From an uncultured delta proteobacterium (GTDB taxonomy: Bacteria; Desulfobacterota; Desulfomonilia; UBA1062), in contig CAWCTR010000010.1 in NCBI GenBank assembly GCA_963798485.1, positions 10,061 to 74,060 of the forward strand: a stretch of DNA of 64,000 bases. Reading direction: 5' to 3'. This document shows positions 1 through 18,098 of this stretch, piece after piece. Position 1 is the first letter of the stretch; the number at the start of each line of letters is the position of its first letter. Under the pieces are notes generated by a model. The model did no database searches and had not been told where the DNA came from. It worked only from the letters and a program-made list of their open reading frames with translations. The translations under genes were made by a program, and so were the position numbers.

Positions 1-1
1 T

Positions 2-232
2 GACTTTCATCCTGGATACCTATCGATGGGGGAGAAATCACAGGAAAGACAGAAGAGCTATCGGAGATGGATTTGTGAGACGGTTCCTGTCTGGGAATGG
101 AAGTTGATCAGAGAGGCAGTGCAGAGAGGGCAATTGACTGGTCCGAAAAAATTCGCAGACGAGGTGGAATCCCGTCTGAAGATCAGGGTGGAATTGCGTG
201 GCAGAGGACGACCCAGAAAGGACAAAAAATAA
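2..232 (+). CDS. RAYT/IS200-like (COG1943-type) transposase-like protein, C-terminal part only (5' end outside window)
   Basis: Frame is open from nt 2 to TAA 230-232. The tail HPGYLSMGEKSQERQKSYRRWI...QLTGPKKFADEVESRLKIRVELRGRGRPRK resembles the conserved non-catalytic C-terminal tail of REP-associated tyrosine transposase-like proteins. The catalytic domain is not visible, so the family call is tentative. Confidence 0.45.
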   Translation, partial: DFHPGYLSMGEKSQERQKSYRRWICETVPVWEWKLIREAVQRGQLTGPKKFADEVESRLKIRVELRGRGRPRKDKK

Positions 233-247
233 ATCTGTCTCCTTTTT
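224..247 (-). repeat. B-module repeat (reverse orientation, 1 mismatch) overlapping the stop codon of the RAYT-like gene
   Basis: aaaaaataaatctgtctcctttt is the reverse complement of AAAAGG(A)GACAGATTTATTTTTT. Compare with copies at 3213, 10677 and 16767. Confidence 0.7.
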
Positions 248-250
248 CTT

Positions 251-288
251 AATTAATTTGAAAAATAGGTATGGTGTCCCCAGATTGG
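251..288 (-). repeat. A-module half element with spacer (reverse orientation)
   Basis: ttaattaatttgaaaaataggtatggtgtccccagatt matches the right arm plus spacer of the doublets at 2133-2188 and 4611-4666. Confidence 0.8.
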
Positions 289-524
289 AAAAGGGGAAAG
301 ACATCTTTCTACAGTATGTATGCAGTTTTTCCGATTTATCAGGTATCATGGGGCGCAGTAATATGACTCGACTCCAGTTCTATGCATTACCTGAAAGCGT
401 CTGCACGCAGTTCGCTTTCAAGTTGACGGTGCTCAACACAGGCTTGAATCTGGCCATGAATGGCCAGATCGTCTGGAATTATACGTAAATGAAAAAGCTG
501 ATGCTTAAAAGAAAGGGGAACCCG

Positions 525-1667
525 ATGGGGGATAAGACCATAAGAAAATGTTCCTCCTGCGGAAAAGTGCTGGAGCCTGATGATGACATCTGCGCGAAGT
601 GTGGAGCCCTCTTTGAGGAAAACGGAGAGAGCAGCGAGGGGGAGGGCTCTATCGGAGCGCAACTCCTGTCGTTGGCCAATGACTTCCTCTGTGTGAGCAA
701 AATAGGCCCGCAGTGGTTTGAACTGACATCCCGGCCAGGAGCACAAGTTCCAGGCCAGAAGGTCACGATAAAATACCAGGCCGTGGCGCAGCTGGTGCCG
801 GAAAAATACCAGGTCTTATTCTGGGAAAAGATGATGGAAACTCTGGTGGGTATAGACGCTGTCTCTTCTCAAGCAAGCTCCATCCAGAAATCTATTGATG
901 TCAACCAGAAGTTCCACGGGCACCTCGTGTTCGGCGGCCCTTACGGGTTTCGCTACGACAGACTGCACCGGGTAGTGAAGGCCATTGCGAACGAGCAGGG
1001 TTGGCAATTCGAACTGTCCATGTCCAAACCTGTCATGGACGTCACCCCCCCCATGGAAACGGTGCTTCCCTCCCATACCTCAAGGAAGAGCAGATGGATT
1101 CCCGCGATTCTGGCGGGGGCAGTCATCCTCGTGGTTGTTGCAGCGCTGGTTGGAATACTGTCAAAGGGGGTGAAGGAAACACCTATTGCTGAAAAACCCA
1201 AGACCGTTGCCGTACCGCATGCAGCGCTGGTGGCTCAAAAAGCAGGCGGCGCAGCACAGAAGCCGTCGGTTCCCGCGACATCAGCGGCAATCGATTATAA
1301 TGCCGAAGGCATGAGAAAAGCCAAGGCCGGGAACATGGAAGAAGCAGCCGGGTTATTTGAAAAGGCCGTACAAGCCCGTCCGGATAATTTCAATGCCTGG
1401 AATAACCTGGGATTGGCCCTGCGCAAGATCGGTAAGAATAAGGAAGCCGTCAAGGCCTACCAACGCGCCATTACCATAAATCCCGACTTCGCCCTGGTGT
1501 ACAAGAATCTCGGCATCGTATTCGAGCAAATGGGCAAGAAGAAAGAGGCTGCCCACGCCTATCTGAAATACGCTGAACTGAATCAATCCGCTGCAGATGC
1601 GCGCACCGCCAGAGAAAAAGCCGCGACGCTGATGGGCGCAGCACAGGGAAAGGAGACAAGACCATGA
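525..1667 (+). CDS. Zinc-ribbon / single-pass membrane / TPR-repeat protein
   Basis: CxxC...CxxC ribbon (CSSCGKVLEPDDDICAKCG), a TM helix (WIPAILAGAVILVVVAALVGIL) and C-terminal TPR repeats (AWNNLGLALRKIGKNKEAVKAYQRAITINPDFALVYKNLG). A GGGG-type RBS precedes ATG 525. The ORF is also open from ATG 489. Confidence 0.8.
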   Translation: MGDKTIRKCSSCGKVLEPDDDICAKCGALFEENGESSEGEGSIGAQLLSLANDFLCVSKIGPQWFELTSRPGAQVPGQKVTIKYQAVAQLVPEKYQVLFWEKMMETLVGIDAVSSQASSIQKSIDVNQKFHGHLVFGGPYGFRYDRLHRVVKAIANEQGWQFELSMSKPVMDVTPPMETVLPSHTSRKSRWIPAILAGAVILVVVAALVGILSKGVKETPIAEKPKTVAVPHAALVAQKAGGAAQKPSVPATSAAIDYNAEGMRKAKAGNMEEAAGLFEKAVQARPDNFNAWNNLGLALRKIGKNKEAVKAYQRAITINPDFALVYKNLGIVFEQMGKKKEAAHAYLKYAELNQSAADARTAREKAATLMGAAQGKETRP

Positions 1668-2128
1668 GACACAATTTTTTCACACGTAACCTGATTTTGC
1701 TGCTTTGTTTCCTCTTGGCCTCTGGTTGTGCCGCAACAGAAACAACCACCAAACCCGCAACGACCGGCCCGGCTCCAACCGCCGCTGGTGGTGCCGGGAC
1801 AGAAATAACCACCAAGCCTGCCCCGACGCCAAAACCAGTGATTCTTTATGTTGTCTCTCATCGGCTTAACCTGCGGAAGTGCCCGTCTGTAAAATGCAAG
1901 GTTGCCGCAGTGCTGAAACTGGGCGATGAAGTCATCAAGCTGGGACAGGAAAAGGACTGGATTAATGTACGAGTAAAGGCCACTAACCGTGAAGGTTGGG
2001 TGGCCTCGACCCTGGTCGGGAAAACGGCCAACAAGAAGAAACACTCTTCCAGGATCAAGGAACAAAAGCCTCCACGGGGAAAAGATAAGCAGGGATCATC
2101 CGAGTTACAAGAAGAGTTCGCCCCTTGA
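1664..2128 (+). CDS. Lipoprotein with bacterial SH3 domain
   Basis: ATGA start/stop overlap with the upstream gene. Lipobox LLASGC. SH3b-like block LNLRKCPSVKCKVAAVLKLGDEVIKLGQEKDWINVRV..REGWV. Confidence 0.8.
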   Translation: MRHNFFTRNLILLLCFLLASGCAATETTTKPATTGPAPTAAGGAGTEITTKPAPTPKPVILYVVSHRLNLRKCPSVKCKVAAVLKLGDEVIKLGQEKDWINVRVKATNREGWVASTLVGKTANKKKHSSRIKEQKPPRGKDKQGSSELQEEFAP

Positions 2129-2132
2129 CCTA

Positions 2133-2188
2133 AATCCGGGGACACCATACTAATTAATTCTGGGAAATAGGTATGGTGTCCCCAGATT
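2133..2188. repeat. A-module palindromic doublet (REPIN-like)
   Basis: AATCCGGGGACACCATAC - 20 nt spacer (taattaattctgggaaatag) - GTATGGTGTCCCCAGATT. The 18-nt arms have 1 mismatch. The element begins 5 nt after the stop at 2128. Confidence 0.9.
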
Positions 2189-2246
2189 AAGATTATTAAA
2201 CCTTCAATGCAAAAACTCCGATTTTAAGGAAATACAGCCTCGAAAT

Positions 2247-3140
2247 ATGAAAGCTTTGAAAAAGGATGGGGTTATGAAAGACGAAAGCAGATCAGTGGGC
2301 CGGTTGCTGGATGTGCTCGCCGAAGCCAAGGATTTGGTAGCCGAGTTTGCGGACGAGGCATACAAGAACAAGGCGGCTGAAGAAGCTCTGCGGGAAAGCG
2401 AAGAGCGGTACCGGATCCATTTTTCCCTGACCAACGATGTCATGTTTTCCTTAGACCGGCAGCTCACGATCCTGAACGTTTCTTCGAACATCGAGCGGGT
2501 TCTCGGGTACAAGCCCGAGGAACTGATTGGTAAGACTATTGCAGAGGCGAACCTGCTGCATGCCGACGATATGCAGGATGCGGTGGATAAAGCCCAGCTC
2601 GTCCTTGCCGGAAAGGTATCCCTGTCATCAATTTTCCAGTTCGTGACCAAAAACGGCGATATCGTGATCGGCGAGGTAAGCAGCATCCCGTTCAGCCGCG
2701 ACGGCCAGGTCGTCGAGGTGATCAATGTGGCCCGGGACATAACCAAGCGGATCAACACGGAAAACTCCCTGCGCGAGAGCTCGGAGCGCTACCTGCACAT
2801 CCTCGATTCCCTGCCCAGCGCAGTATGCATCCTGAAGGCCGAAGATACCAGGTTTACGTTCGCCAACCAGGCTTTCTGCGCCCTGAGCGGCCACGAGATC
2901 CGCGACATCATCGGGAAGACCCCGGTCGAGCTGAAGCTCCCGGTGGGGCTCGACGATTTCTTTTCCAATGGCAAACCCGATGCGGGTTCTTCCCAGGCCG
3001 ATCTCAGGAAGCAGCGGCTGAAGAAGAAGGACGGCACCGTAGCCGATGTGATGGTCTCGTCAGGCCCCATGAAGTACGGGGGGGAAGACTGCCTGATCAT
3101 GGTCATGATAAATGTCACCAATTATAAGCGAAGCTTGTAG
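2247..3140 (+). CDS. Tandem PAS-domain protein (no recognisable output domain)
   Basis: Two PAS-like blocks, each introduced by SEERY/SSERY (ESEERYRIHFSLTNDVMFSLD..., SSERYLHILDSLPSAVCIL...). 297 aa. Confidence 0.8.
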   Translation: MKALKKDGVMKDESRSVGRLLDVLAEAKDLVAEFADEAYKNKAAEEALRESEERYRIHFSLTNDVMFSLDRQLTILNVSSNIERVLGYKPEELIGKTIAEANLLHADDMQDAVDKAQLVLAGKVSLSSIFQFVTKNGDIVIGEVSSIPFSRDGQVVEVINVARDITKRINTENSLRESSERYLHILDSLPSAVCILKAEDTRFTFANQAFCALSGHEIRDIIGKTPVELKLPVGLDDFFSNGKPDAGSSQADLRKQRLKKKDGTVADVMVSSGPMKYGGEDCLIMVMINVTNYKRSL

Positions 3141-3157
3141 TGGATAACCCGCATGGA

Positions 3158-3175
3158 AATCTGGGGACACCATAC
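3158..3175 (+). repeat. A-module solo copy
   Basis: AATCTGGGGACACCATAC, 18 nt after the PAS gene stop. Confidence 0.85.
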
Positions 3176-3188
3176 TTAAAAAGGAAAA

Positions 3189-3251
3189 TGGGAATAAAAA
3201 AGGGAATAAAAAAGGGGACAGATTTATTTTTTTGGGTCGGCCCTGGCCTCT
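3189..3251 (+). repeat. Purine-rich tandem stutter + B-module + conserved tail
   Basis: (GGGAATAAAAAA)x2, then GGGGACAGATTTATTTTT, then tail GGTCGGCCCTGGCCTCTG. The same B+tail is seen at 10677-10715. Confidence 0.85.
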
Positions 3252-3264
3252 GTATTCGAGCTTC

Positions 3265-3288
3265 TAAATAAATGGCAAGAGACCATTT
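3265..3288 (+). repeat. D-module variant
   Basis: aaataaatggcaagagaccatttt compared with consensus AAATGGGGTCAGAGACCATTT. Confidence 0.55.
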
Positions 3289-3346
3289 TCACAACACTAA
3301 CAAATCATCTCCGATCCCATTTAATCCTAAGACCTAGGGCCATGAA

Positions 3347-3532
3347 CTATGTCTTGTCGTCCATTACTGTGTGGATACCCACATAATAGGTGATGGTAGC
3401 GCCGATCACGCAGGCATAGAATCCGATCAACTGATCCATGGTCGGACACTCTCTGTAGACAAACATCAATGTTGAGATGAAAAACGTAGGGACAAGAAAT
3501 CCTATCAGTGGGACATGATACTTGAGTTTCAT
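3347..3532 (-). CDS. Small (61 aa) two-helix membrane protein, function unknown
   Basis: Internal ATG 3532 is preceded by a GGGGG RBS. Hydrophobic sequence MKLKYHVPLIGFLVPTFFISTLMFVY...GFYACVIGATITYYVGI. Confidence 0.45.
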   Translation of the reverse strand: MKLKYHVPLIGFLVPTFFISTLMFVYRECPTMDQLIGFYACVIGATITYYVGIHTVMDDKT

Positions 3533-3629
3533 AGATACCCCCTTCAAATAAATAAATCTATCTCCATTTATTTCTTTTATGATATTCAATTCCCTGAATA
3601 ATAAAATCAAAAAATGGTGGAGGTTTGTC

Positions 3630-4493
3630 ATGCATGAACGCAGGCCATTCCGTTCCTTTGTCAGCTATATAGACAAAAGCCGGGAATACTATGCCGCCCA
3701 AGGGTATGACCAGCCATATACATGGGCCTACCATAGCAGCGCCCCCTTCGCATCTCTGAAGAAACCTCTAGCGCAAACCCGAATCGGCTTGATCACAACG
3801 GCCTCGTTTATCGATCTCCTCGCGGATGACGAAGCCTTTAAGAAAGGAAGGGCCCCATATGCTGCACCTTCAGACCCTCCGCCTGAGCGCCTCTACACCG
3901 AGCATCTCTTTTGGGACAGGGACGCCACCCATACGGACGATGTAGAGAGTTTTTTGCCGCTGAAGCGCCTCGCTGAATTTGCCGGAGAGGGGCGCATCGG
4001 TTCAGCTTCGACGCGCTTTTACGGCGTACCCACCGAATACAGCCAAGGCCGGACGAGAACCAAGGATGCGCCGCAGGTCTTGGGATGGGTGCAGGAAGAC
4101 AGTGTGGATGCCGTGCTCCTGTCGGCGCTTTGACCGGTGTGCCATCAGACCGTGAGTCTGGTTGCCCGTCATCTGGAAGAAAACGGCATACCTACCGTTA
4201 TCATGGGTTCGGCCCGCGACATCGTTGAGGAATGCGGCGTGGCCCGTTTTCTGTTTACGGATTTTCCACTGGGAAACCCCTGCGGCAGACCCTGGGATGC
4301 CGACATGCAACGCGCGATGGCAGGTGCAGCCCTTGATCTCCTCGAACATGCCTGGACGCCGCGTACAACGGTCCAGACGCCTTTTCAGTGGCCGGACGAG
4401 GAGTGGCGGAGAAAATTCATGCTCGTCGATGAAAGCAACCGGGAGACCCTAGCCAAAGCGGGTGAGGAGCGGCGTCGCTTTCAAAAGAAATAG
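3630..4493 (+). CDS. Glycine/sarcosine/betaine/D-proline reductase selenoprotein B (GrdB/PrdB) family protein, with in-frame UGA (Sec) at 4131-4133
   Basis: Track ORFs 3579-4133 and 4137-4493 are in the same frame and separated only by TGA. The joined sequence reads ...VDAVLLSAL-U-PVCHQTVSLVARHLEENGIPTVIMGS, a UxxC motif typical of GrdB-family proteins. N-terminus FVSYIDKSREYYAAQGYDQPYTWA. GGTGGAGG RBS lies 6 nt before ATG 3630. Confidence 0.75.
4141..4165 (+). promoter_or_regulatory. SECIS-like hairpin downstream of UGA 4131-4133
   Basis: gccatcagac cgtga gtctggttgc forms 7 contiguous bp (one G-U), then 2 more after a mismatch, with a 5-nt loop containing G and U. The hairpin starts 8 nt after the UGA. 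Confidence 0.55.
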
Positions 4494-4517
4494 GGGACAA
4501 AAAACAAATCTGTCCCA
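4493..4517. repeat. B-related mini-hairpin at the gene 3' end
   Basis: GGGGACA aaaaacaaatc TGTCCC. It overlaps the last base of the TAG stop (4491-4493). Confidence 0.6.
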
Positions 4518-4574
4518 TTTCCTTTATCCACTCCTTCAGGATTTATTGAAGGTTTTTAATCCTTGGAGGGAAAA

Positions 4575-4593
4575 GGGGACGGTTCTATTTTTT
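4575..4593 (+). repeat. C-module copy
   Basis: GGGGACGGTTCTATTTTTT preceded by a purine run (ggagggaaaa). Confidence 0.85.
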
Positions 4594-4610
4594 TAAAAAT
4601 AGACAGTGAG

Positions 4611-4666
4611 AATCCGGGGACACCATCCTCATTAATTCTGGGAAATAGGTATGGTGTCCCCAGGTT
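4611..4666. repeat. A-module palindromic doublet (REPIN-like), second copy
   Basis: AATCCGGGGACACCATCC - tcattaattctgggaaatag - GTATGGTGTCCCCAGGTT. Near-identical to 2133-2188. Confidence 0.9.
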
Positions 4667-4689
4667 ATTAATATTTCTACCTAAAGAGA

Positions 4690-4965
4690 TTACTTTGCCT
4701 TTTTCTTTGCAGCCTTTGCCGCTGCGGCCTTCTTCTTTACAGCCTTTACCGCCACCTTCGGTTTCGCAGCCTTTGCCGCTGCGGCCTTCGGCTTTGCAGC
4801 CTTTGCCACCGCCTTAGGTTTCGTAGCCTTTGCTGCTGCTGCCTTTGGCTTTGCAGCCTTTACCGCCGCCTTAGGTTTCGCAGCTTTTGCTGCTGCTACC
4901 TTCGGCTTTGCAGCCTTTGGGGGTTTCTTTTTTACTTCCTTCTTAGCAACTGCCGTTTTTGCCAT
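4690..4965 (-). CDS. Histone H1-like Lys/Ala-rich nucleoid-associated protein
   Basis: 91 aa made almost entirely of AAKPKAA(V)KAAKPK repeats. AGGAGGA RBS upstream of ATG 4965. Confidence 0.75.
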   Translation of the reverse strand: MAKTAVAKKEVKKKPPKAAKPKVAAAKAAKPKAAVKAAKPKAAAAKATKPKAVAKAAKPKAAAAKAAKPKVAVKAVKKKAAAAKAAKKKAK

Positions 4966-4983
4966 AAAATCCTCCTCCCTTAG

Positions 4984-6042
4984 TTACTCTTTATCCTCTG
5001 CGTCTTCATTCTCTTCCAGAACAATGTCATCCACATCTAAAACAAATTCAGCATCAAGTTCATCGACAACCTCGTGCAGGTCTTCATTCTCACCCGGGGC
5101 AATATTGAGTGGTTCTGTTTTTGCCACGTAAGCTGAACGTTGTTTCCCCCTGCGCTTGCGAGCCGCTTTGATCACTCCATCAAGCTGATTAGCTCCACAT
5201 GACGGGCAAAGAGGTTGCGGTTTACCTAAATCATAAAATTTGATGCTACAGTTATAGCACTTGTACCGTTTCCCAAGGTCTACAGAAGGAACCATAACCT
5301 TCTGAGTTTGAATCTTTTCAGTCACAATGACATCTTTTTTTTCAGACAGCTGACCCATCTCAGAAGAAATTACCTTTGTCTCGAATGTCTTCTCTTTCGC
5401 TGCCGGAGCAGCTTTTTTCTCGCCATGCTTTTCTGCTTTTCCGGCCGGCTTACTCTTGACGGGTTGTTTCTTCACAACAGCAGGGGGCACTGGGCCCTTG
5501 GACGGCTTAGCTTTGACTACCGGGGCTTCTTTTTTCTTGCTCAGCTGCACTGCTTTCCCTGCCGGCTTGCCCTTGGCAGGTTGTTTCTTCACTGCAGCAG
5601 GAAGCACAGGGCCCTTGGACGGCTTAGCTTTGACTACCGGGGCTTCTTTTTTCTTGCTCAGCTGCACTGCTTTTCCGGCCGGCTTGCCCTTAACGGGTTG
5701 TTTCTTCACTGCAGCAGGAAGCACAGGACCCTTGGACGGCTTCGCTTTGACTTTCGGGGCTTCTTTTTTCTTGCTCAGCTGCGCTGCTTTTCCGGCCGGC
5801 TTACCCTTGACGGGTTGTTTCTTCACTGCAGCAGTATGCACAGGGTTCTTGGATGGCTTCCCTTTGATTATCGGAGCTTCTTTTTTCTTGTGCTGCAGTT
5901 CTGCTTTTCCAAAAACCTTTTTATTTTTAGGTTTCTTCTTCTCGGCTAATGAAACACCGCTTTTATGAGATTCCTTCTTAACTGCCGGCCCAGTCTTCTT
6001 TTTCTCAGGACGATTTTTATTGAGTTTGTTTAGTGATCGCAT
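4984..6042 (-). CDS. Lysine-rich repeat protein with C-terminal FYDLN_acid-type zinc ribbon and acidic tail
   Basis: The C-terminus KRYKCYNCSIKFYDLGKPQPLCPSCG followed by ENEDLHEVVDELDAEFVLDVDDIVLEENEDAEDKE matches my memory of the TIGR02300 (FYDLN_acid) signature. It is preceded by about 4 copies of a 39-aa basic repeat. Confidence 0.75.
   Translation of the reverse strand: MRSLNKLNKNRPEKKKTGPAVKKESHKSGVSLAEKKKPKNKKVFGKAELQHKKKEAPIIKGKPSKNPVHTAAVKKQPVKGKPAGKAAQLSKKKEAPKVKAKPSKGPVLPAAVKKQPVKGKPAGKAVQLSKKKEAPVVKAKPSKGPVLPAAVKKQPAKGKPAGKAVQLSKKKEAPVVKAKPSKGPVPPAVVKKQPVKSKPAGKAEKHGEKKAAPAAKEKTFETKVISSEMGQLSEKKDVIVTEKIQTQKVMVPSVDLGKRYKCYNCSIKFYDLGKPQPLCPSCGANQLDGVIKAARKRRGKQRSAYVAKTEPLNIAPGENEDLHEVVDELDAEFVLDVDDIVLEENEDAEDKE
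5430..5910 (-). repeat. 117-bp (39-codon) in-frame tandem repeat array, about 4 copies
   Basis: gggcccttggacggcttagctttgactac recurs at 5492 and 5609, and a variant at 5726, giving a 117-nt period. Protein unit: KAKPSKGPVLPAAVKKQPVKGKPAGKAVQLSKKKEAPVV. Confidence 0.9.
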
Positions 6043-6147
6043 CCTTTCTATCCTTCCTGCAATATTATATCGATTTAACGATCTAATTTCATTAACATAA
6101 AGTATACCAGGATAAATTTCCGTTCCCCATCAAGGGAAAGGGAAGAA

Positions 6148-6163
6148 GGGGACAGATTTTTTT
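6148..6163 (+). repeat. B-module variant
   Basis: GGGGACAGATTTTTTT after the purine run gggaaagggaagaa. A degenerate A core (ctgggaccaccttactaatt) lies at about 6191-6210. Confidence 0.6.
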
Positions 6164-6288
6164 GGAGGAAAATCCGCAGTAAATCTGTATATCTGGGACC
6201 ACCTTACTAATTTTGCTTTTTCGGTCTCCCTGCTTTATTGGGAGACAGTTTTCTTACGAAATCATTTTCCGGACCGACAACAGAAAAA

Positions 6289-6348
6289 GGGGGCAGTTCT
6301 ATTTTTTAGGTTTAAAACCATGAAAAACAGGGTCAGAGACCGTTTATT
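6289..6348 (+). repeat. C-module variant followed by D-module
   Basis: aaaaagGGGGCAGTTCTATTTTTT at 6289-6307 and GGGTCAGAGACCGTTTATT at 6330-6348. Confidence 0.7.
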
Positions 6349-6452
6349 CCAAAATCCATGATCTTGGCATATAATCATCAGATACTATTGTCATACAAAA
6401 ATTATCTGTATATACCTAACGTAAACATCATTGCATCAGGAAGGGGTTAATC

Positions 6453-7643: not shown

Positions 7644-7667
7644 AAAGGTGCAGCAGGAATGGGGTGA

Positions 7668-10715: not shown

Positions 10716-10769
10716 AAATCAATCCTTATTGATTCGCCTTTCGACTTCATCAATGAATATCAATATTTC

Positions 10770-10798
10770 TTGACAAAGGTTCGACGACGAACTATTAA
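10770..10798 (+). promoter_or_regulatory. Candidate sigma70-type promoter overlapping a MarR operator palindrome (site 1)
   Basis: TTGACA (10770-10775), 17-nt spacer, TATTAA (10793-10798). The spacer is AAGGTTCGacgaCGAACTA (10776-10794). The same 8+7 nt half-sites recur at 11253-11271. Confidence 0.6.
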
Positions 10799-10805
10799 TC
10801 GTAGT

Positions 10806-11237: not shown

Positions 11238-11252
11238 AAAAATTTTGCAGAT

Positions 11253-11271
11253 AAGGTTCGGCTACGAACTA
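11253..11271 (+). promoter_or_regulatory. MarR operator palindrome (site 2) upstream of the flavoprotein gene
   Basis: AAGGTTCGgctaCGAACTA lies between TTGCAG (11245) and TAATAA (11270), 25 nt upstream of ATG 11296. Confidence 0.55.
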
Positions 11272-11295
11272 ATAAAACCATATAGGAGGCGGAAC

Positions 11296-11868
11296 ATGAA
11301 AGTGGTGGGATTTGTGGGAAGTCCGAGGAAATCGGGGAATACTGCTGCAGTGGTGGAGGAGGTCCTTCGGGGCGCACAGGAAGCGGGTGCAGAAACGAGC
11401 GTATATAATCTTAACCAGCTCAATATAAGGGGATGCCAGTCATGCTACAAATGCCAGACACCGGATGGAAAATGCATACAGAAAGACGACATGGGAAAGC
11501 TGCTTGACGAGATCTACAGCGCCGATGCCATTGTGATCGGCACGCCTCTCTACATGATGCAGGTGACCGGCCAAACCAAGGTATTCCTGGACAGGTTCTT
11601 TTCCTTCCTCTATCCGGTGGATGCCACTTCGGGCAATTTCAGGAACAAGTTGGGCGGAAAAAAGGCAGTGACGGTGTACACGCAGGGCCAGCCTGATACC
11701 AATCTATTCTCGTCTTATCTCAACCAGATGGACGGCACCCTGAGCTTCATCGGCTTCAATGTACAGGGCCGGGTCGTGGCAGGCGGCAACAGAAACATGG
11801 ATGATGCAAAAAAGGACAGTGCAGTTATGGAAAAGGCATACGCCGCGGGGACAGCCCTTGTTTGTTAA
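11296..11868 (+). CDS. Iron-sulfur flavoprotein / flavodoxin-like NAD(P)H-dependent FMN reductase
   Basis: MKVVGFVGSPRKSGNT. Compact Cys motif CQSCYKCQTPDGKC (Cx2Cx2Cx6C) as in the Isf family. AGGAGG RBS at 11284-11289. Confidence 0.85.
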   Translation: MKVVGFVGSPRKSGNTAAVVEEVLRGAQEAGAETSVYNLNQLNIRGCQSCYKCQTPDGKCIQKDDMGKLLDEIYSADAIVIGTPLYMMQVTGQTKVFLDRFFSFLYPVDATSGNFRNKLGGKKAVTVYTQGQPDTNLFSSYLNQMDGTLSFIGFNVQGRVVAGGNRNMDDAKKDSAVMEKAYAAGTALVC

Positions 11869-11902
11869 ATAGGGTCTGTTAAATAGGGTCAGAGACCATT
11901 TT
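11864..11902 (+). repeat. D-module with a local 13-14 nt tandem duplication, overlapping the stop codon
   Basis: GTTAAATAGGGTC TGTTAAATAGGGTC AGAGACCATTTT. TAA stop at 11866-11868. Confidence 0.8.
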
Positions 11903-11986
11903 CTATTAAATTAATTTCATAAGAAGCACCAGGTATTACTGGAGTGCCGGGGCTTCTATTGACTCATCTGAAAATTATATGTGTGC

Positions 11987-12715
11987 TTAAAAATATCGTC
12001 CCTTTACCAAAGCTTGTCCCATGAGAAAATAGCACATCGCATCGATCATTGAAAAGATGCCCACACCGGCCCAGGCCCAGGTGGTGAGGTGAACGTTCAG
12101 CACACGAGTCTTTTCGTGGAGGGTATCGGAAAGGTCATCGGTCCGTTCGCGGGTATACAGGTAGAGAATAAGGACAACAATCATGGGCAGGGCATACCCG
12201 ATGTTGTAGAGCAGGATATTCCCCAGTGCTGAATGCATGCCCAGATGAAGCGACGCATACTTTCCCAGTGCGATGATGTACGGGATGGACAAAGGAAAAG
12301 ACGACACAGAAATAAATGTTCCGAGGGAAAAGGCGAAAATACCTTTCATGGACTTGAATCTCACAACCATAATATTCTGAGCACGGTCGACAGGGGCATG
12401 TCTTTTCCGGTAAAAATACCAGGCCCCGATGAGGGACATAACGATCCCCGACACCAGTTCGATCTGATAGTATTGGGCATTGGGTATGCTCTCGGTGGAA
12501 GGAACATACCTGGCAAGAAAAACACGCAACTGGTCAATCGCCAAATACCCGCCCACACCGCACAAAAAATAAGCCCCGCTCAACCCGGCAAGATAGGCAA
12601 TGCTGTTGCGTAACGGGTTGATGGTAGTCAGCAGCAGGACAAAGATAATGATCTGCTGAGTTGTGGATAGACTGTCGAATAAGGATAATGTCAGGGTAAA
12701 AGGGATTGTACTCAT
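11987..12715 (-). CDS. Polytopic inner-membrane protein, family uncertain (GAP/LysE-like topology)
   Basis: About 6 hydrophobic helices. It starts right after the PIN gene stop (ATG 12715, or TTG 12730). Confidence 0.6.
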   Translation of the reverse strand: MSTIPFTLTLSLFDSLSTTQQIIIFVLLLTTINPLRNSIAYLAGLSGAYFLCGVGGYLAIDQLRVFLARYVPSTESIPNAQYYQIELVSGIVMSLIGAWYFYRKRHAPVDRAQNIMVVRFKSMKGIFAFSLGTFISVSSFPLSIPYIIALGKYASLHLGMHSALGNILLYNIGYALPMIVVLILYLYTRERTDDLSDTLHEKTRVLNVHLTTWAWAGVGIFSMIDAMCYFLMGQALVKGRYF

Positions 12716-12731
12716 CAATTCACAGGTCAAT

Positions 12732-13142
12732 CTACTTCCTAAGAATCATCAGGAATTCCTGCGGAGATATGATTCTTACCGATTTATATTTCTTCAGATC
12801 AAGCAAGTCCTTGTCGCCGGTGACAATGTGGGATGCCTTTGCATTAAACGCAACTGAGATGAACATTTCATCGTCGGGATCACGGCAGACGCCATGTATC
12901 TCTTCCTCGATATCGACCACTTCAAAGAATGGAAGTATTTCCTTTTCAATGATGCTTTTCATCTCCTCATCTTTCAGGCCGAATTTCGGGTAGCTGAGCA
13001 CTTTTCTGAACTCGGAAAAGGTTTCCTTCGAGATGGCAGGTGAAATGGCGCCTTTCTTCCAGAGATCAACGAACTCTGCAAGGTACCCCTTGAGAAGGAT
13101 TGCAGAAACCAGGACGTTGGTGTCCAGGACGACCCGTTTCAT
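12732..13142 (-). CDS. PIN-domain toxin (TIGR00305/PIN_3-like)
   Basis: MKRVVLDTNVLVSAIL ... DPDDEMFISVAFNAKASHIVTGDKDLL. The start overlaps the antitoxin stop (TGATG). Confidence 0.85.
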   Translation of the reverse strand: MKRVVLDTNVLVSAILLKGYLAEFVDLWKKGAISPAISKETFSEFRKVLSYPKFGLKDEEMKSIIEKEILPFFEVVDIEEEIHGVCRDPDDEMFISVAFNAKASHIVTGDKDLLDLKKYKSVRIISPQEFLMILRK

Positions 13143-13381
13143 CACTTCTTCTTTTTCCTTACCCAACTGACTGCATCGCTTACGTCTTCCCCTGTAATAC
13201 CAAGTTTCTCCATCTTGTCCCGGATGCTTTCCAGGGAAGAGGTGATGGGGGTTATCCTGACAGGCATCAGTACAATCTGATTATCCTTCACCTTGGCGTC
13301 GAACAAGTCAACACCCGGGAACTTATCGGCAATTTCTTTGGGGAGAGTCAGCTGGTTTTTTGAGGTTTTCTTGGCAAGCAT
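13142..13381 (-). CDS. AbrB/MazE/SpoVT-type antitoxin
   Basis: KNQLTLPKEIADKFPGVDLFDAKVKDNQIVLMPV swapped-hairpin motif. 79 aa, directly upstream of the PIN gene. Confidence 0.8.
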   Translation of the reverse strand: MLAKKTSKNQLTLPKEIADKFPGVDLFDAKVKDNQIVLMPVRITPITSSLESIRDKMEKLGITGEDVSDAVSWVRKKKK

Positions 13382-13493
13382 ACTATCTTACCTCCTTACA
13401 GTAAGGATACCTTAATTTCCATTTGGCTGCAAGTCGAATATCGCCGGAACTTATCGGGGCGGATTTCTTCATGACGCCCCTTCTCAGATGCTA

Positions 13494-13829
13494 TCAGGTG
13501 AAGATCTGGTGTAACACGAAGCTTACTACTGAAAAGACAATACTGAAAAGGATCGCCCACCAGATATTCATGACGGAAAACCCGGTCACGATGGCGCTTG
13601 TCAGGAGCACGAGTAGTCCGTTCAGGACAAGGATGAAGAGCCCCAGGGTGAGGATGGTGAAAGGAAAGGTCAGTACAATCAATATGGGCCGCAGCACGGC
13701 ATTGATGAGCCCGAGCACCAGGGCCGTCATCAGTGCTGTCCCAAAGCTCTGGACCGAAACCCCGGGCAGCAGATAGGCAGTGATCATGATCGACACCGTC
13801 ATCAGAAGCCACTTGATAAATATTTTCAT
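13494..13829 (-). CDS. DUF360 / phage holin family IV-like membrane protein
   Basis: MKIFIKWLLMTVSIMITAYLLPGVSVQSFGTALMTALVLGLINAVLRPILIVLTFPFTILTLGLF. Confidence 0.8.
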   Translation of the reverse strand: MKIFIKWLLMTVSIMITAYLLPGVSVQSFGTALMTALVLGLINAVLRPILIVLTFPFTILTLGLFILVLNGLLVLLTSAIVTGFSVMNIWWAILFSIVFSVVSFVLHQIFT

Positions 13830-13942
13830 GGAAACCTCCATACCCATGCTAACCTATTACCCACCACGGCAGCATTATTCTCACTCTGCCGATCACTGTA
13901 CCGGCAGTCTGAACGAATGCCGCAAACGATCCCAAACAGGCG

Positions 13943-14230
13943 TTACGGCTTCAGGTTGTGGACCTCAAAGGGCGTTTCCTGGGGTGGCGTGGTGAAGCCT
14001 CCTTTGATGCCCTGTTTCATCCGGGGCATCAGGATGCCGTCGCGGAACTCCTCCCAACTCGCCCTGGATTCATGGACCGCCACGATCGTCCAGCCGCCGG
14101 CCGATGGGCCGGCCGCGTGGAAGATCTGGCCTTTCGGCAGTTTGTCTCTGCCGGGATGCACTGCTGCAATTGACGCCTCATACTGCTCCTTCGTGCCGCC
14201 CGGAAAGTAATGTACGATCCCGTATGCCAT
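13943..14230 (-). CDS. Small conserved hypothetical protein (95 aa)
   Basis: AAGGAG RBS before ATG 14230. MAYGIVHYFPGGTKEQYEASIAAVHP...FHAAGPSAGGWTIVAVHESRASWEEFRD has a soluble alpha/beta-like composition. Confidence 0.6.
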   Translation of the reverse strand: MAYGIVHYFPGGTKEQYEASIAAVHPGRDKLPKGQIFHAAGPSAGGWTIVAVHESRASWEEFRDGILMPRMKQGIKGGFTTPPQETPFEVHNLKP

Positions 14231-14443
14231 TTTCGTTCTCCTTTCAGGCTGATGGGGCCGCCTCCTATGACCCAACAGAAAGCATGGGGACATGCTTGTG
14301 AAATATGATGGCTCCAAGAATGCCCGCTACCCCATTCATCCCGGCGTCTGATGCTTTCCGTTTCATCAATCACTCCTTTGCTTTTGATAACTATATAGGA
14401 ATCCCTTCGGGCGAAGGCAACACCCGGAAGAAATCCATCGGAA

Positions 14444-14524
14444 AAATGGGGTCAGAGACCATTTATCAAAGGAAAAGGGAAGAAAAAGAAGAAAAAGGGG
14501 ACGGTTCTATTTTTCTGCGAGTCC
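14444..14524 (+). repeat. D-module + purine-rich tract + C-module
   Basis: AAATGGGGTCAGAGACCATTTAT (14444-14466), then caaaggaaaagggaagaaaaagaagaaaaa, then GGGGACGGTTCTATTTTT (14507-14524). Confidence 0.9.
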
Positions 14525-14529
14525 CCATT

Positions 14530-15021
14530 TTATTGTTCCTCATCCGTCTTTGAGAGAAACCCTATCTGCCTCTTCTTCTGCGCTGGCGGGGTCATAAGCT
14601 GCCGTATTGCATGGATCAGCATTGAAAGATCCTTGTCGTGAGACATAACCTTGTTCTCAAGTTCGTCAAGCTTGGCTGCAAGCCGTCTATGAGTCGAAAG
14701 AAGTTCCCTCAATTGCACAAACGCACGTACAACAAACACGCTCATCTCTATGGCCCGTGGTGTGTTCAGGATGGTTGCTGCCATGATCGCACCGTGTTCA
14801 GTGAATGCATACGGAAGATAACGGCGGCCTCCACGGCCTGCCTTTGAGGTCGCATTTTGCGACCTCAAAGATTCAAATTCCTCTGATGTGAGCTGGAATA
14901 GAAAGTCTTCAGGGAACCTTGAGATATTCCGTTTGACCTGCTCATTAAAACGTTTGGTTGGCACATCAAAGAGTTCCTCTTTCTTTGTGATAAGCTGGTT
15001 GGGTATGATGGTAGTGGGCAT
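14530..15021 (-). CDS. ORF6N (KilA-N-related) DNA-binding domain protein, N-terminally truncated or diverged
   Basis: VPTKRFNEQVKRNISRFPEDFLFQLTSEEFESLRSQ ... YLPYAFTEHGAIMAATILNTPRAIEMSVFVVRAF. The usual IRGQxVMLDxDLAxLY block before this motif is missing. Confidence 0.7.
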   Translation of the reverse strand: MPTTIIPNQLITKKEELFDVPTKRFNEQVKRNISRFPEDFLFQLTSEEFESLRSQNATSKAGRGGRRYLPYAFTEHGAIMAATILNTPRAIEMSVFVVRAFVQLRELLSTHRRLAAKLDELENKVMSHDKDLSMLIHAIRQLMTPPAQKKRQIGFLSKTDEEQ

Positions 15022-15163
15022 TGATGTCGGCGGGGAACGGAAAGGTTTCCATGCAGTCGCTCTGGGGACGGTCTCTTCATTGCAACGCAGAAGTCAACCG
15101 ATCCATCTACTGTTGTGGACTGGTGTCATCTCCAACCTCTCTTTTCTCATAAATCTTTCGTGA
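15003..15163 (+). pseudogene. Possible gene remnant (53-codon ORF with an RNase-H/ASKHA-like VVGIDVGGE N-terminal strand)
   Basis: MMVVGIDVGGERKGFHAVAL..., then low-complexity sequence and a stop. It overlaps the ORF6N 5' end and contains a C-like core GGGGACGGTCTCTTC at 15064-15078. Confidence 0.25.
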
Positions 15164-15221
15164 GATTTCAGGGAAAATGTGCCATGAAGAGAAAGAGGAT
15201 TAACCACAGGGACAGGTTGCA

Positions 15222-16685
15222 ATGACAATGACCGCTGCTCATCTGGTGCACGATGTCTGGCATATCGCTGCTATCGGACTTGGGTTGCTTCTTTCTGTAT
15301 GTGCGACCGGACACGTAGTTCTCTACAAACGCGATTCGCGCTCCGCCATCGCGTGGGTGGGTTTCGTTTGGCTCGTGCCCCTCATCGGGGCTGTCATGTA
15401 CTTCTTTTTCGGAGTGAATCGCATTCGCCGTAAGGCCTTTCTGCTGAGAAGAGACCTGGAGCGGTACCGGGCAGAAGCCACTCAACTGGAATGTATGCCG
15501 GAAGAGTTGCAGCGACATCTGCCGGATCACGGAGGATATCTCGAGATGCTGGCCCGGGTCGTTGGAGGTGTGGTGGAGCGGCCCTTATTGCCGGGGAACC
15601 GGATCGATCCGTTGGTGAACGGAGATGAAGCCTATCCGGCCATGCTTGAGGCGATCCAAAACGCGAGGCAGACAGTATCTTTTGTGACCTATATCTTTGA
15701 TCGGGACGAAGTCGGGATGGCCTTTGCGCATGCGTTCGGCGAGGCTGTGCGCCGGGGCGTGGCAGTGAGGGTGCTGATTGACGCAACGGGGACTCATTAT
15801 TCCTGGCCCTCCATTCTCCACACGCTGCAGCGGGAGGGGGTGAAGCATGCACGGTTTCTCCCGCCTTTTGCTTTGTTGCATCCGATGTCGGTCAACATGC
15901 GCACACACAGGAAGATCCTGGTGGCGGATGGGCGCGTGGGATTTACCGGCGGCATGAATATTCGAGTGGGGAACTGCCTTCAAGCCCGACCGAAAAACCC
16001 GGTGCAGGACATCCATTTCCGCGTGAAGGGCCCTGTGGTGACCCAGCTCCAGGAAGTATTCATTGATGATTGGCTTTTCACGACCGGTGAATCTTTGCGC
16101 GGTGAAAAATGGTTTCCACAAACCGAAAGCGCGGGGCAGGTGTTGGCGCGGGGCGTTACCGACGGTCCGGATGAGAATTTCGAGAAACTTCGTTGGACGC
16201 TGTTGGGAGCATTGTCGATTGCCCGCCGTTCTGTTCGTATCATGACTCCCTATTTTCTGCCCGACCCTGCAGTGGTTTCCGCTCTGAATCTGGCAGCAAT
16301 GCGGGGTGTTCAGGTCGATATCATTTTGCCTGCACAGATCAACCTGCCCTTCGTCCTGTGGGCCTCACGGGCGATGTGGTGGCAAGTGCTCCAGCATGGA
16401 TGCCGGATATGGCTGACCCCGCCTCCATTCGATCACTCCAAACTCATGCTGGTGGATGGCTGTTGGGTTCTGTTGGGCTCGGCCAACTGGGATGCCCGGA
16501 GCCTGCGCCTCAACTTCGAGTTCAACGTGGAATGTTACGACGTCAAGCTTGCCACGTGGCTTGATCAGTGGGTTGAGACGAAACGGAAGAGCGCCCGTCC
16601 CGTGACGTTAGAGGAGGTCGATGGCCGCTCACTGCCCGCCCGCCTGCGCGACGGTATCGCGCGATTGCTCACGCCGTACTTATAG
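15222..16685 (+). CDS. cls: Cardiolipin synthase (phospholipase D superfamily)
   Basis: Two N-terminal TM helices, YFFFGVNRIRRKA, and two HKD motifs (HRKILVADG and HSKLMLVDG). Confidence 0.9.
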   Translation: MTMTAAHLVHDVWHIAAIGLGLLLSVCATGHVVLYKRDSRSAIAWVGFVWLVPLIGAVMYFFFGVNRIRRKAFLLRRDLERYRAEATQLECMPEELQRHLPDHGGYLEMLARVVGGVVERPLLPGNRIDPLVNGDEAYPAMLEAIQNARQTVSFVTYIFDRDEVGMAFAHAFGEAVRRGVAVRVLIDATGTHYSWPSILHTLQREGVKHARFLPPFALLHPMSVNMRTHRKILVADGRVGFTGGMNIRVGNCLQARPKNPVQDIHFRVKGPVVTQLQEVFIDDWLFTTGESLRGEKWFPQTESAGQVLARGVTDGPDENFEKLRWTLLGALSIARRSVRIMTPYFLPDPAVVSALNLAAMRGVQVDIILPAQINLPFVLWASRAMWWQVLQHGCRIWLTPPPFDHSKLMLVDGCWVLLGSANWDARSLRLNFEFNVECYDVKLATWLDQWVETKRKSARPVTLEEVDGRSLPARLRDGIARLLTPYL

Positions 16686-16724
16686 TCCGGAACTTATGTG
16701 TGGCGCGGGCATATCCATCTGAAT

Positions 16725-16783
16725 AAATGGGGTCAGGCAAGAAAGGCAAGAAAAGGGGCAAGAAAAGGGGACAGATTTATTTT
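16725..16783 (+). repeat. Partial D-module + tandem stutter + B-module
   Basis: AAATGGGGTCAG, then GCAAGAAAG GCAAGAAAAGGG GCAAGAAAA, then GGGGACAGATTTATTTT. Confidence 0.85.
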
Positions 16784-16850
16784 CCGGTCTATTCTCCCGG
16801 GTTTAATTTTTGTGGAGTGCCGGAACCCTTGAGGAGATACAGTATTTATC

Positions 16851-16920
16851 GGGTCAGAGACCATTTACGCCATTTACAGAAATAGGAGTCAGAGGCCATT
16901 TATGCACTGACCCCTATTTC
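16851..16920. repeat. D-module, then an inverted pair of D-type arms
   Basis: GGGTCAGAGACCATTT (16851-16866) with CCATTTAC duplicated. GAAATAGGAGTCAG (16879-16892) and CTGACCCCTATTTC (16907-16920) are inverted repeats. Confidence 0.8.
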
Positions 16921-16957
16921 CATTATCACCCCTTCTTTTCCTTACGCGGTCCTTCCT

Positions 16958-17407
16958 TTAGTGTCTATCGCGTCCCTGTTGTCCATGTCCCTGGAAGTGA
17001 CGGCTGGGGATGCGTTGGTAGTTCCATGAGCGGCCGTGCCAGCTATGGGCTCTGTAATAGCCTCTCCAGCCTGGGTCCACATGATTGTAGAACCTTGGGA
17101 CTCTGTTGTAATAGGCCCAGCCCCGATCGTAATAATGGGAGCGATACCAGCGACCTTCATAGGGACGCCACCACCAGCCGTTCCAGAAAAACAGCTCGAC
17201 GTTGACATCAGGGGCCACGTAAACTCGGTCTGTATCCGGTATATCCACCAGATCCGGAGGTCCCGGAGGTCCCGGAGGTCCTCCTCCGACTCCGATTACT
17301 ATAGGAGGCAGACCGATGTTTATACCCACCCTTACCCCTGCCATTGCAGGGATAGGGGTGATAATCACTAATGCCAGCAATATTGTTAACAGATATAGTT
17401 TTTTCAT
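16958..17407 (-). CDS. Secreted Trp/Tyr/Arg-rich protein with GPP repeats, function unknown
   Basis: GGAGGAG RBS before ATG 17407. Signal peptide MKKLYLLTILLALVIITPIPAMA. GGGPPGPPGPPD, then FFWNGWWWRPYEGRWYRSHYYDRGWAYYNR. Confidence 0.65.
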   Translation of the reverse strand: MKKLYLLTILLALVIITPIPAMAGVRVGINIGLPPIVIGVGGGPPGPPGPPDLVDIPDTDRVYVAPDVNVELFFWNGWWWRPYEGRWYRSHYYDRGWAYYNRVPRFYNHVDPGWRGYYRAHSWHGRSWNYQRIPSRHFQGHGQQGRDRH

Positions 17408-17496
17408 GTGTTTCTCCTCCGTGTAATTTTCGATTGTTTTATAATTTAGATGACGAGTGAAGCACCTTTGTTGTCTACATTGGTAATAATGGTGTA

Positions 17497-17569
17497 AGAG
17501 GCCATTTTGATCTGTCCCCATTTTTTGTGATAGGTTGGTATGACTGGCGGGGAAATGGGGTCCATTTAT
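17497..17569. repeat. Fragments of D- and B-modules
   Basis: agaggccatttt + gatctgtccccatttttt (17497-17526), and AAATGGGGTCCATTTAT (17553-17569). Confidence 0.6.
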
Positions 17570-17589
17570 AATGCAGGAGAATTGAGTCT

Positions 17590-18081
17590 ATGGTCACAAC
17601 AGAAGAGCGCACCGAGCTTTTGGAAATGGTGAGGGAGCTTGCAAACAGCTCTCCTTACTATCGTCATGTACAGATGCAGGTAGTAGGGTTCACTCAGCAG
17701 GGATGTATCATGAACATGATCGTAGAGCACCAGCATACAAACCTCTATGGCAACACTCATGGTGGGGCTGTTGCATCGCTGGCAGACTCCACCTGTGGAA
17801 TATCGCTTGCAGTGGCACTCGAACGTAATGAATATGCCATGACCCAGCACCTTGATGTAAGTTATCTTAAGCCCTCTACCAAAGGCATATTGCGTGCTGA
17901 AGGGAGATTGCTCTCGCGCGGCAGGAATTCAGCAGTACTTGAGGCGGATATCTTCAATGAATCAGGTGAAAAGGTTGCACACGCACATACTGTCCACAGT
18001 ATTCGCAAGAGGCCGGGCGGGTATATTCCAGAGGACTCTAAAGATATTAATGATAGTAAAGACAAGGGAGAAAATGCCTAA
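17590..18081 (+). CDS. PaaI-family hotdog-fold acyl-CoA thioesterase
   Basis: NLYGNTHGGAVASLADSTCGISLAVAL ... GRLLSRGRNSAVLEADIF. Confidence 0.85.
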   Translation: MVTTEERTELLEMVRELANSSPYYRHVQMQVVGFTQQGCIMNMIVEHQHTNLYGNTHGGAVASLADSTCGISLAVALERNEYAMTQHLDVSYLKPSTKGILRAEGRLLSRGRNSAVLEADIFNESGEKVAHAHTVHSIRKRPGGYIPEDSKDINDSKDKGENA

Positions 18082-18098
18082 ATCCGGGGACACCATAC
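18081..18098 (+). repeat. A-module solo copy touching the stop codon
   Basis: cctAAATCCGGGGACACCATAC. The same cctaaatcc lead-in is seen at 2129. Confidence 0.85.

Follow-up and report, generated by a model that had tools for sequence, protein, structure and literature searches.

TIRtrons were described by Di Nocera et al. (2013, BMC Genomics 14:522, PMC3733652) as RAYT-like genes, termed TIRYTs (for TIR-associated tyrosine transposases), that lie between terminal inverted repeats (TIRs) sharing the sequence GGGGWSAS, and some of these TIRs form moderately abundant families of single copies, dimers and groups (PMC3733652). TIRYTs were equated with TnpA_REP subclass 2.1 by Quentin et al. (2018, PMC6006769); this subclass corresponds to RAYT group 1 of Bertels et al. 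(2017; PMC6006769) and is characterized by a class 2 tyrosine motif (Y---NP), a later serine motif and a C-terminal helix-turn-helix-like domain (Quentin et al., 2018). The 16-mers that flank group 1 genes occur roughly 12 times per replicon (PMC5581495). Here, we describe a stretch of 64,000 nucleotides (nt) from an uncultured delta proteobacterium of the Desulfobacterota (GenBank assembly GCA_963798485.1, contig CAWCTR010000010.1, positions 10,061 to 74,060; hereafter “the window”), which opens in the tail of a TIRYT gene and carries, in the intergenic DNA of its first 18.1 kb, numerous copies of four short repeat modules, A, B, C, and D. It is very likely that A, B, and C, and probably D as well, are dispersed copies of TIRtron TIRs; their mobilization in trans by TIRYTs is what we infer.

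The likeness to TIRtrons lies in a RAYT-like Y1/HUH gene with a C-terminal extension, in non-palindromic inverted repeats around this gene, one of them over its 3′ end, and in TIR copies dispersed as singles, dimers and groups, in the window too. Modules A (GGGGACAC), B (GGGGACAG), and D (GGGGTCAG) fit GGGGWSAS. As regards subclass 2.1, YIELNP and DYxWSS are found in the full-length relatives of the window's gene; for the C-terminal domain, sequence comparison with Pfam and PDB gave no match. The window differs from the published TIRtrons in its local density, which is far above the ~12 copies per replicon of group 1 (PMC5581495), in the coexistence of four families in mosaics, and in two features that PMC3733652 and PMC6006769 do not mention: truncated or partial copies stacked at the outer ends of the repeats (“stutter”) and confinement to a rearranged segment. 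The kind of element, namely the terminal inverted repeats of TIRYTs, has been known since 2013; what is new here are the specific families and their pairing with TIRYT lineages, their density and mosaics, the outer-end stutter and the contrast between a plastic and a stable segment. A preliminary description of this DNA had held the modules to be novel; they are instead the termini of a described class (TIRtron/TIRYT, GGGGWSAS; PMC3733652; PMC6006769), an outcome that the description had itself named as speaking against it. A full-text search of the searchable literature for the motif strings gave no record of these particular A, B, C, and D sequences.

The repetitive extragenic palindrome (REP)/REPIN-RAYT systems (Nunvar, 2010; Bertels and Rainey, 2011; Ton-Hoang, 2012) share with this locus a single-domain Y1/HUH gene flanked by presumably mobilized repeats, inverted doublets with long hairpins, an intergenic location and E. 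coli TnpA_REP (4ER8) as the closest solved structure. They differ in that the single unit here is not a palindrome and that the GTAG or CGTC tag is absent from the A, B, C, and D consensus; further, the protein here reaches 73.6 bits, just under the REP_Tyr_transpos cutoff of 80, and has an extra C-terminal domain of ~100 residues ending in RGRGRPRK. The combination of repeat types in fixed neighborhoods of single gaps, such as D with B or C, recalls the bacterial interspersed mosaic elements (BIMEs) of E. coli, except that the units here are of TIR type. With IS200/IS605, the locus shares the Y1/HUH transposase fold and the single-stranded DNA chemistry expected of it; those insertion sequences (IS), however, have subterminal hairpins and no inverted repeats, whereas the ends here are inverted repeats without hairpins, their TnpA is ~130-155 residues long and lacks a C-terminal domain (~225-235 residues here), and they are found in high copy as whole elements.

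Copies were counted by pattern and compared with dinucleotide-preserving shuffles. Module A (GGGGACACCATAC, at most one mismatch) has 8 matches against 0.13 in shuffles, all within nt 269-18,098 (269-281 on the minus strand, 2138, 2171 minus, 3163, 4616, 4649 minus, 10208, and 18086); a joint B/C pattern (AAGGGGACRGWTYTATTT, at most two mismatches) has 10 within nt 227-16,782 (0.01 in shuffles) and the D pattern (GGGTCAGAGRCCRTTT, at most two mismatches) has 7 within nt 6,330-17,507 (0.14 in shuffles). An independent repeat finder returned the same families, both 56-nt A inverted doublets and the GC-rich tail, already reported in the preliminary description, on two B copies (3233-3251 and 10697-10714). 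To the right of nt 18,098 the 64-kb window contains no copy of any module, and looser patterns give nothing convincing there. According to a crude map of open reading frames (ORFs), the first 18.1 kb hold 2,848 nt of intergenic DNA and the other 45.9 kb hold 3,969 nt, and a copy is present in 13 of the 14 left-hand gaps and in none of the 24 right-hand gaps of at least 40 nt (Fisher P = 2.6e-9). Since the remaining 45.9 kb still has 24 such gaps, the clustering on the left is not due to a shortage of intergenic DNA on the right, and the earlier observation that the repeats fill the intergenic DNA of nt 1-18,100 and are missing from the other 46 kb is upheld. Nearly all of the earlier coordinates are right as well, including the stop codons inside modules at 230-232, 4491-4493, and 11866-11868; the C copy given as 14507-14524 actually occupies 14497-14514, and what is listed as D at 3265-3288 is a degenerate copy.

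Within the repeat-rich segment, D is mostly found in the same gap as B or C, and the modules of a mosaic are spaced 20-50 nt apart. Single copies lie predominantly on the plus strand (17/21, P = 0.007; D, 7/7), as does almost all D in the related contigs L147 and L148. Copies occur in convergent, co-directional and divergent gaps alike; the tie between forward A copies and the 3′ ends of plus-strand genes proposed earlier did not hold. Modules are also found in divergent promoter gaps (6043-6452, 10110-10769, 15022-15221, and 17522-17589).

The window begins ~155 codons into the TIRYT gene, and nt 2-232 code for 76 residues ending in …LIREAVQRGQLTG…RGRGRPRKDKK*. A word-indexed search with this tail returned six homologues, all of them fragments, one of which (P0002) opens with the last part of the NCBIfam model for REP-associated tyrosine transposases; an exhaustive profile search returned 2,154 relatives. 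The full-length relatives are ~230 residues long, and the tail profile aligns at residues ~130-230, that is, with their C-terminal extension. Most of those scanned carry PF01797 (Y1_Tnp) at the N-terminus, and they display the motifs PHHV, NHVHLL (HUH) and YIELNPVRA…DYxWSS (catalytic tyrosine and serine motif). The identification of the left-hand gene as RAYT-like was therefore correct, as was the placement of its stop codon inside a reversed B copy, a layout shared by the relatives of the lineage. A copy in L148 that is 84% identical at the nucleotide level has both NHVH and RYIELNP, and its match to REP_Tyr_transpos spans positions 2-146 of the 146 in the model; it is this copy, with an in-frame TGA read as W, that gave the score quoted above, below the equivalog cutoff. 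The best PDB profile match of the family is 4ER8, ahead of the IS200/IS608 transposases, and is limited to the catalytic core; an AlphaFold model of the C-terminal domain (6-sequence alignment, mean confidence score pLDDT 54) was too poor and was left unused.

Modules A and B/C pair with distinct lineages of this transposase family. A scan for the A 18-mer (AATCYGGGGACACCATAC, one genome per species) gave at least 120 loci versus roughly 35 expected by chance; those among the matches listed are mostly from Planctomycetota, Desulfobacterota (including Smithella and Desulfonema) and Magnetococcales, with other phyla scattered. Among these same listed matches, a TIRYT gene or remnant adjoins the motif in 22 of 120 loci; in 9 the distance from A to the downstream ATG is 38-47 nt, and in 10 reversed A starts anywhere from the last base of the stop codon (-1) to 6 nt after it (+6). 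Four loci have A at both ends of the gene (L082, L116, L047, and L077), a TTGACA…TATAAT-like promoter is often present between A and the ATG, and the encoded proteins begin MAR[IL]AR…PHH[IV]TQRGNR. Relatives of the gene at nt 2-232 were retrieved from metagenomes by protein similarity alone, with the repeats playing no part in the selection; they carry AAAGGGGACAGATTTATTTT ~45-80 nt upstream of the ATG and a stop codon within or just before AAATAAATCTGTCCCCTTTTT, as at nt 224-247 of the window, and begin MPRxGRVVLP.YPHH[IV]VQRGHN. Inverted repeats are present at both ends of the gene in six B/C-lineage loci (L148, L136, L134, L128, L127, and L146), of which L146 is flanked by a C-like variant (GGGGACAGATCTATTT and AAAATAGATCCGTCCCC) and L127 and L128 by a GGTGAC variant. 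A third lineage, with genes starting M[AS]RPLRIEY…, is preceded by GGGGTCAAAYCT…, and D resembles its GGGGTCA-type ends.

At every locus where inverted copies enclose a gene, the enclosed gene belongs to Y1_Tnp, and the pairing of lineage with TIR is consistent throughout. A, B, and C, which the preliminary description had placed with D in one superfamily by their sequence, belong together as a single family, each being the flanking repeat of a lineage within the same group of transposases. Protein identity ranges from 41 to 81% across phyla within the A lineage and from 51 to 84% within the B lineage, with ~33% between A and B, and the TIR core is close to invariant inside each lineage; the A set, having been picked by an exact 18-mer, is biased toward core conservation, a bias from which the B set is free. 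A nearly invariant core alongside such diverged proteins is consistent with specific recognition of the repeat by the enzyme.

Single A and B copies do not fold beyond chance (z scores of -0.7 and +0.9 for A, +0.4 and +0.2 for B), and the hairpin of single D is weak (-1.9 and -1.0), whereas the two A doublets (2133-2188 and 4611-4666) and the D pair at 16879-16920 fold strongly (z -4.2 to -5.2), the doublets making 18-bp hairpins. Since only inverted doublets fold, the modules are of TIR type rather than canonical REPs; of the REP/REPIN pattern proposed earlier, the link to a RAYT-like gene and the inverted doublets stand, and the hairpin and GTAG tag of the single unit are missing from A and B. 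The A doublets retain ~9-10 nt of the inner flank of an A-type TIRtron on each side (…ACCATAC-TAATTAATT… / …GAAATAG-GTATGG…) and thus look like mini-TIRtrons formed by internal deletion; their 91% identity, spacer included, indicates that the two were copied as a unit.

A second feature of the copies, absent from the preliminary description, is found at their outer ends, where 3′-truncated partial copies are stacked 5′ of B, C, and D (3190-3213, 10653-10676, 14473-14496, 16743-16766, and 11868-11880), as in GGGACAAAAA-GGGGACAAAAA-GGGGACAGATTTATTTT at 10653-10694. Copies of A in other phyla stutter as well (AATCTG-AAATCTGGG-AAATCTGGGGACACC…), as do the outer ends of TIRtrons in L082, L003, L145, L129, L141, and L149, and an extra ATCYG lies no more than 40 nt upstream in 44 of 109 A sites of other genomes and in 7 of 109 control windows (P = 2e-9).

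Close relatives show how variable the repeat-rich segment is. The thiolase gene at 6453-7643 has homologues 89-94% identical in uncultured Deltaproteobacteria/Thermodesulfobacteriota, and the contigs that carry them (L147-L149) contain the same module families at high density in rearranged regions. In L148 there is a full B TIRtron, 84% identical in nucleotides to nt 1-250 of the window and with an in-frame TGA at the position of the window's TGG, and L149 has a frameshifted A TIRtron where the window has its reversed A (269-281). The modules held by orthologous gaps vary among L147-L149, and the set upstream of the thiolase gene differs in each genome. A PIN-domain toxin gene preceded by a small partner (12732-13381, minus strand, in the window; 1418-2070 in L147; 11262-11911 in L148) lies, in L147 and L148, as a toxin-antitoxin cassette between the thiolase and NMO genes, with two D copies in direct orientation around it; the empty thiolase-NMO site of the window keeps ATGGGGTG, the 5′ end of D. 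The majority of synteny-block ends are within ~10 nt of a module, a coincidence that is only suggestive, as alignments end in intergenic DNA anyway. The window from 24.9 to 46 kb, on the other hand, is collinear with L151 (99.6% identity), L152, and L154 (~80-93% across segments), and no convincing copy was found in these three contigs, with one marginal B/C match inside a called gene of L154. The collinear segment being repeat-free in the relatives too, the repeats mark a rearrangement-prone segment beside a stable one.

Several other observations were made in these contigs. L151, 48.7 kb long and from a 99.6%-identical strain, would end near nt 19,100 of the window if collinear (judged from coordinates); this point falls immediately beyond the final repeat copy, where a break would be expected if short-read or metagenome assemblies fail at the repeat-rich segment. 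L147 carries a ~2.76-kb tandem duplication of five genes (4738-7408 and 7498-10225) with B and D near both junctions. Beside the B TIRtron of L148 (1-9575) are a DDE_3 transposase, DUF3800, CAP12-PCTIR_TIR, a group II intron reverse transcriptase and DUF4238; this mobile/defense-like cluster fits the idea that the segment is a variable island.

An alternative that deserves weight, even if we consider it unlikely, is that the single repeats are merely leftovers of dead TIRtrons whose genes have been deleted and were never mobile as short units. Decayed TIRtrons do exist: L148 and L149 hold pseudogenes, the end of a B TIRtron abuts an A TIR in the window itself, and the closest database relatives of the TIRYT tail (L121-L125, 82% amino acid identity) are 5′-truncated remnants with an A-like reversed copy (AGTATTGTGTCCCCGGAATT) precisely at the truncation point (about 4300-4560 in L121), which suggests that one TIR family inserted into, or recombined with, a gene of another. 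Damage of this sort means that the repeats may be relics rather than active elements. Yet at least 25 copies lie in the 18-kb segment, and hmmsearch over every ORF of the window revealed no transposase remnant among them; both A doublets have the same 20-nt spacer, and mosaics packed at 20-50 nt are not predicted by the decay of whole elements.

Less probable still is that the copies are kept by selection for a host function, as terminators, mRNA stabilizers or sites for a domesticated TIRYT or nucleoid protein, a role with which an origin from transposases would be compatible. The REP/BIME elements of E. coli have roles of this type (PMC3733652), the doublets here form 18-bp hairpins, and several copies lie at or on stop codons (2128, 3140, 4493, 11868, and 18081). 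Against this, single A and B are unfolded, modules also lie in divergent promoter gaps and the content of orthologous gaps differs between relatives. Terminator-like sites are not enriched in the window (26 vs. 20.8 ± 4 in shuffles) and just two of them overlap a module (4494-4516 and 4616-4630); Rfam gives no match at gathering score in the whole window and none at E ≤ 1 in nt 1-18400. That the modules are ends of a conventional DDE-type IS or of a miniature inverted-repeat transposable element (MITE) is very improbable, for although the short inverted doublets look MITE-like, they have no target-site duplication (CCTA|…|AAGA; TGAG|…|ATTA) and the genes between inverted copies are all Y1_Tnp.

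Dispersal of TIRtron TIRs remains the reading that we prefer. A TIRtron is a compact unit of ~0.8 kb consisting of a TIR, a promoter, a TIRYT gene of ~225-235 codons and a second TIR over its stop, and on this reading each module is the end sequence of a different TIRYT lineage: A of the MAR[IL]AR…TQRGNR lineage, B with its variant C of the MPRxGRVVLP…VQRGHN lineage to which the gene at nt 2-232 belongs. The cognate TIRYT probably works in trans, its substrates being lone TIRs as well as TIR-spacer-TIR doublets that contain no gene. It would nick the DNA where the repeat ends on its outer side and rejoin it there; this boundary is predicted to be 5′ of AATCYG in A and, in B, 5′ of AAAAAGGGGAC. 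The stutter could then be the scar of repeated nick-and-rejoin events, for example of a polymerase running off a nicked template end and realigning. Copies would pile up in the rearrangement-prone segment, coinciding with block boundaries, and the conserved neighbor would stay free of them.

Several points weigh against this scenario. We know of no demonstration that a TIRYT acts on such repeats. The window has just the non-catalytic tail of one TIRYT gene, the catalytic domain lying outside it, and the gene's own reversed B copy is mutated (GGAGAC), reading GGAGACAG, one change; gene copies in relatives are damaged (the TGA in L148, frameshifts in L149, 5′ truncation in L121-L125). C (GGGGACGG) departs from GGGGWSAS by one base, at position 7, and no D-flanked Y1 gene was present among the loci examined, which leaves D without a partner gene; a scan of viral contigs for such a partner gave one match, likely due to chance, and was discounted. 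The copy counts refer to the 64-kb window. Finally, the orientation of A bears no relation to GC skew in 81 other loci and the strand bias of the window is unmatched there; the idea of lagging-strand targeting was dropped on this account, and we make no claim regarding replication strand.

The individual copies are listed in Table 1. Two mechanically called ORFs, at 38-349 (minus strand) and 14305-14553 (plus strand), overlap modules and are probably spurious; such repeats can yield false small genes and supply stop codons to real ones (232, 4493, 11868, and 18081).

Table 1. Transposase gene tail and repeat copies in the left-hand part of the window (positions in nt).
Feature	Position	Strand	Basis or remark
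Tail (last 76 codons) of a TIRYT gene of the B lineage; RAYT-like Y1/HUH transposase	2-232	+	84% nt identity to complete copy, L148 2439-3134
Reversed B (GGAGAC variant), 3′ TIR of TIRYT gene, stop 230-232 inside	224-247	-	Same layout in lineage relatives
Reversed A with inner flank AAAAATAG	261-286	-	Matches 5′ TIR of A-type TIRtron, same position in L149
A inverted doublet: A, 20-nt spacer, reversed A	2133-2188	.	Gene-less mini-TIRtron, REPIN-like; single-stranded DNA fold -15.8 kcal/mol, z -5.1
Single A, 17 nt past PAS gene stop	3158-3175	+	Pattern match; no hairpin
B with 5′ stutter (GGGAATAAAAAA twice) and GC-rich tail GGGTCGGCCCTGGCCTCTG	3190-3257	+	Repeat finder
Degenerate D (GGCAAGAGACC)	3265-3288	+	Direct reading
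Degenerate reversed B (GGAGATAGATTTATTTAT)	3548-3565	-	Pattern scan
B-like hairpin (GGGGACA…TGTCCC) over selenoprotein gene stop	4493-4520	.	B/C pattern, fold, terminator scan
C copy	4571-4593	+	B/C pattern
A inverted doublet, 91% identical to 2133-2188 including spacer	4611-4666	.	Repeat finder; fold z -4.2
Degenerate B, also in L149	6146-6165	+	B/C pattern, comparison with relatives
Degenerate A and partial 5′ copy; not in L149	6183-6213	+	Direct reading, comparison with relatives
Composite of C-like and D; not in L149, other arrangement in L147/L148	6285-6348	+	B/C and D patterns
D (+), then directly reversed C	8824-8870	.	B/C and D patterns, repeat finder
Single A	10203-10220	+	A pattern
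B with 5′ stutter (GGGACAAAAA units) and GC-rich tail	10653-10714	+	Repeat finder
D after partial 5′ copy (AAATAGGGTC), over stop 11866-11868	11868-11902	+	D pattern
D, purine-rich stutter, then C	14444-14514	+	B/C and D patterns, repeat finder
C-like core alone (GGGGACGGTCTCTTC), weak member	15064-15078	+	Direct reading
Cluster: partial D, B with stutter 16743-16784, D 16848-16867, D inverted pair 16879-16920	16725-16920	+	Inverted pair fold z -5.2
D-like, reversed B-like 17509-17526, short D 17553-17569	17489-17569	.	D pattern
Single A from last base of thioesterase stop; last copy in window, L149 synteny ends here	18081-18098	+	A pattern

Some features of the window are independent of the repeat families. 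At 3630-4493 (plus strand) an in-frame TGA (4134-4136) joins two ORFs into a protein of ~287 residues, and a stem-loop (CCAGACcgtgaGTCTGG, ~4146-4162) lies ~10 nt past the TGA, where a bacterial selenocysteine insertion element would be expected. If the TGA is taken as Cys or selenocysteine, the product can be placed as a distant member in the PrdB/GrdB selenoprotein B family (E = 1e-25 to TIGR04483, well short of the cutoff), and neither half has a Pfam match. Two adjacent genes at 4690-6042 (minus strand) contain tandem coding repeats: four copies of a 117-nt period within 5380-5964 in a FYDLN_acid-domain gene, the L149 version of which is shorter (188 residues), and three copies of a 57-nt period in a Lys/Ala-rich ORF of 91 residues (4690-4965). 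An isolated inverted repeat at 31600-31671, with 29-nt arms that are 86% complementary (GGAGCCAGAAGTCAGAATTCAGAAGTCAG / …), separates a citrate-transporter-like gene from the one that follows; it has no relation to modules A-D. Finally, the gene at 25542-26399 (minus strand), whose L151 counterpart has weak EF-hand matches, contains a 183-nt internal direct repeat (25876-26295, 74% identity).

TIRYTs (RAYT group 1, TnpA_REP subclass 2.1) are among the largest RAYT-like groups, under a name that is rarely used in the searchable literature. This locus and its relatives offer well-defined pairings of an enzyme lineage with an end sequence of 18-24 nt that is kept from phylum to phylum even where the proteins have diverged to about 50-60% identity, as well as gene-less doublets that look like the mobilized unit, a stutter that marks a candidate cleavage boundary and, side by side, a rearranged segment rich in repeats and a stable one free of them; biochemists thereby gain specific substrates and predictions. 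For annotation, the finding accounts for a large part of the DNA between genes at this locus, and also for several small ORFs that are spurious and for stop codons that have been altered.

A more far-reaching possibility, which we regard as quite unlikely, is that the TIR families form a lineage-specific address system used for nick-driven shuffling of cassettes. Each repeat would then present a conserved GGGGWC core, a variable spacer of 4-7 nt and an AT-rich YTATTT part, and recognition would be shared by the Y1 core and the C-terminal RGRGRPRK domain; the enzyme would nick exactly at the outer boundary of the repeat, with the widespread stutter as the footprint of that nick, and the same reaction would shuffle gene cassettes between repeats, giving a plastic, repeat-rich segment beside a stable core. 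If this were the case, TIRYTs would be active genome-structuring enzymes rather than decaying selfish elements.

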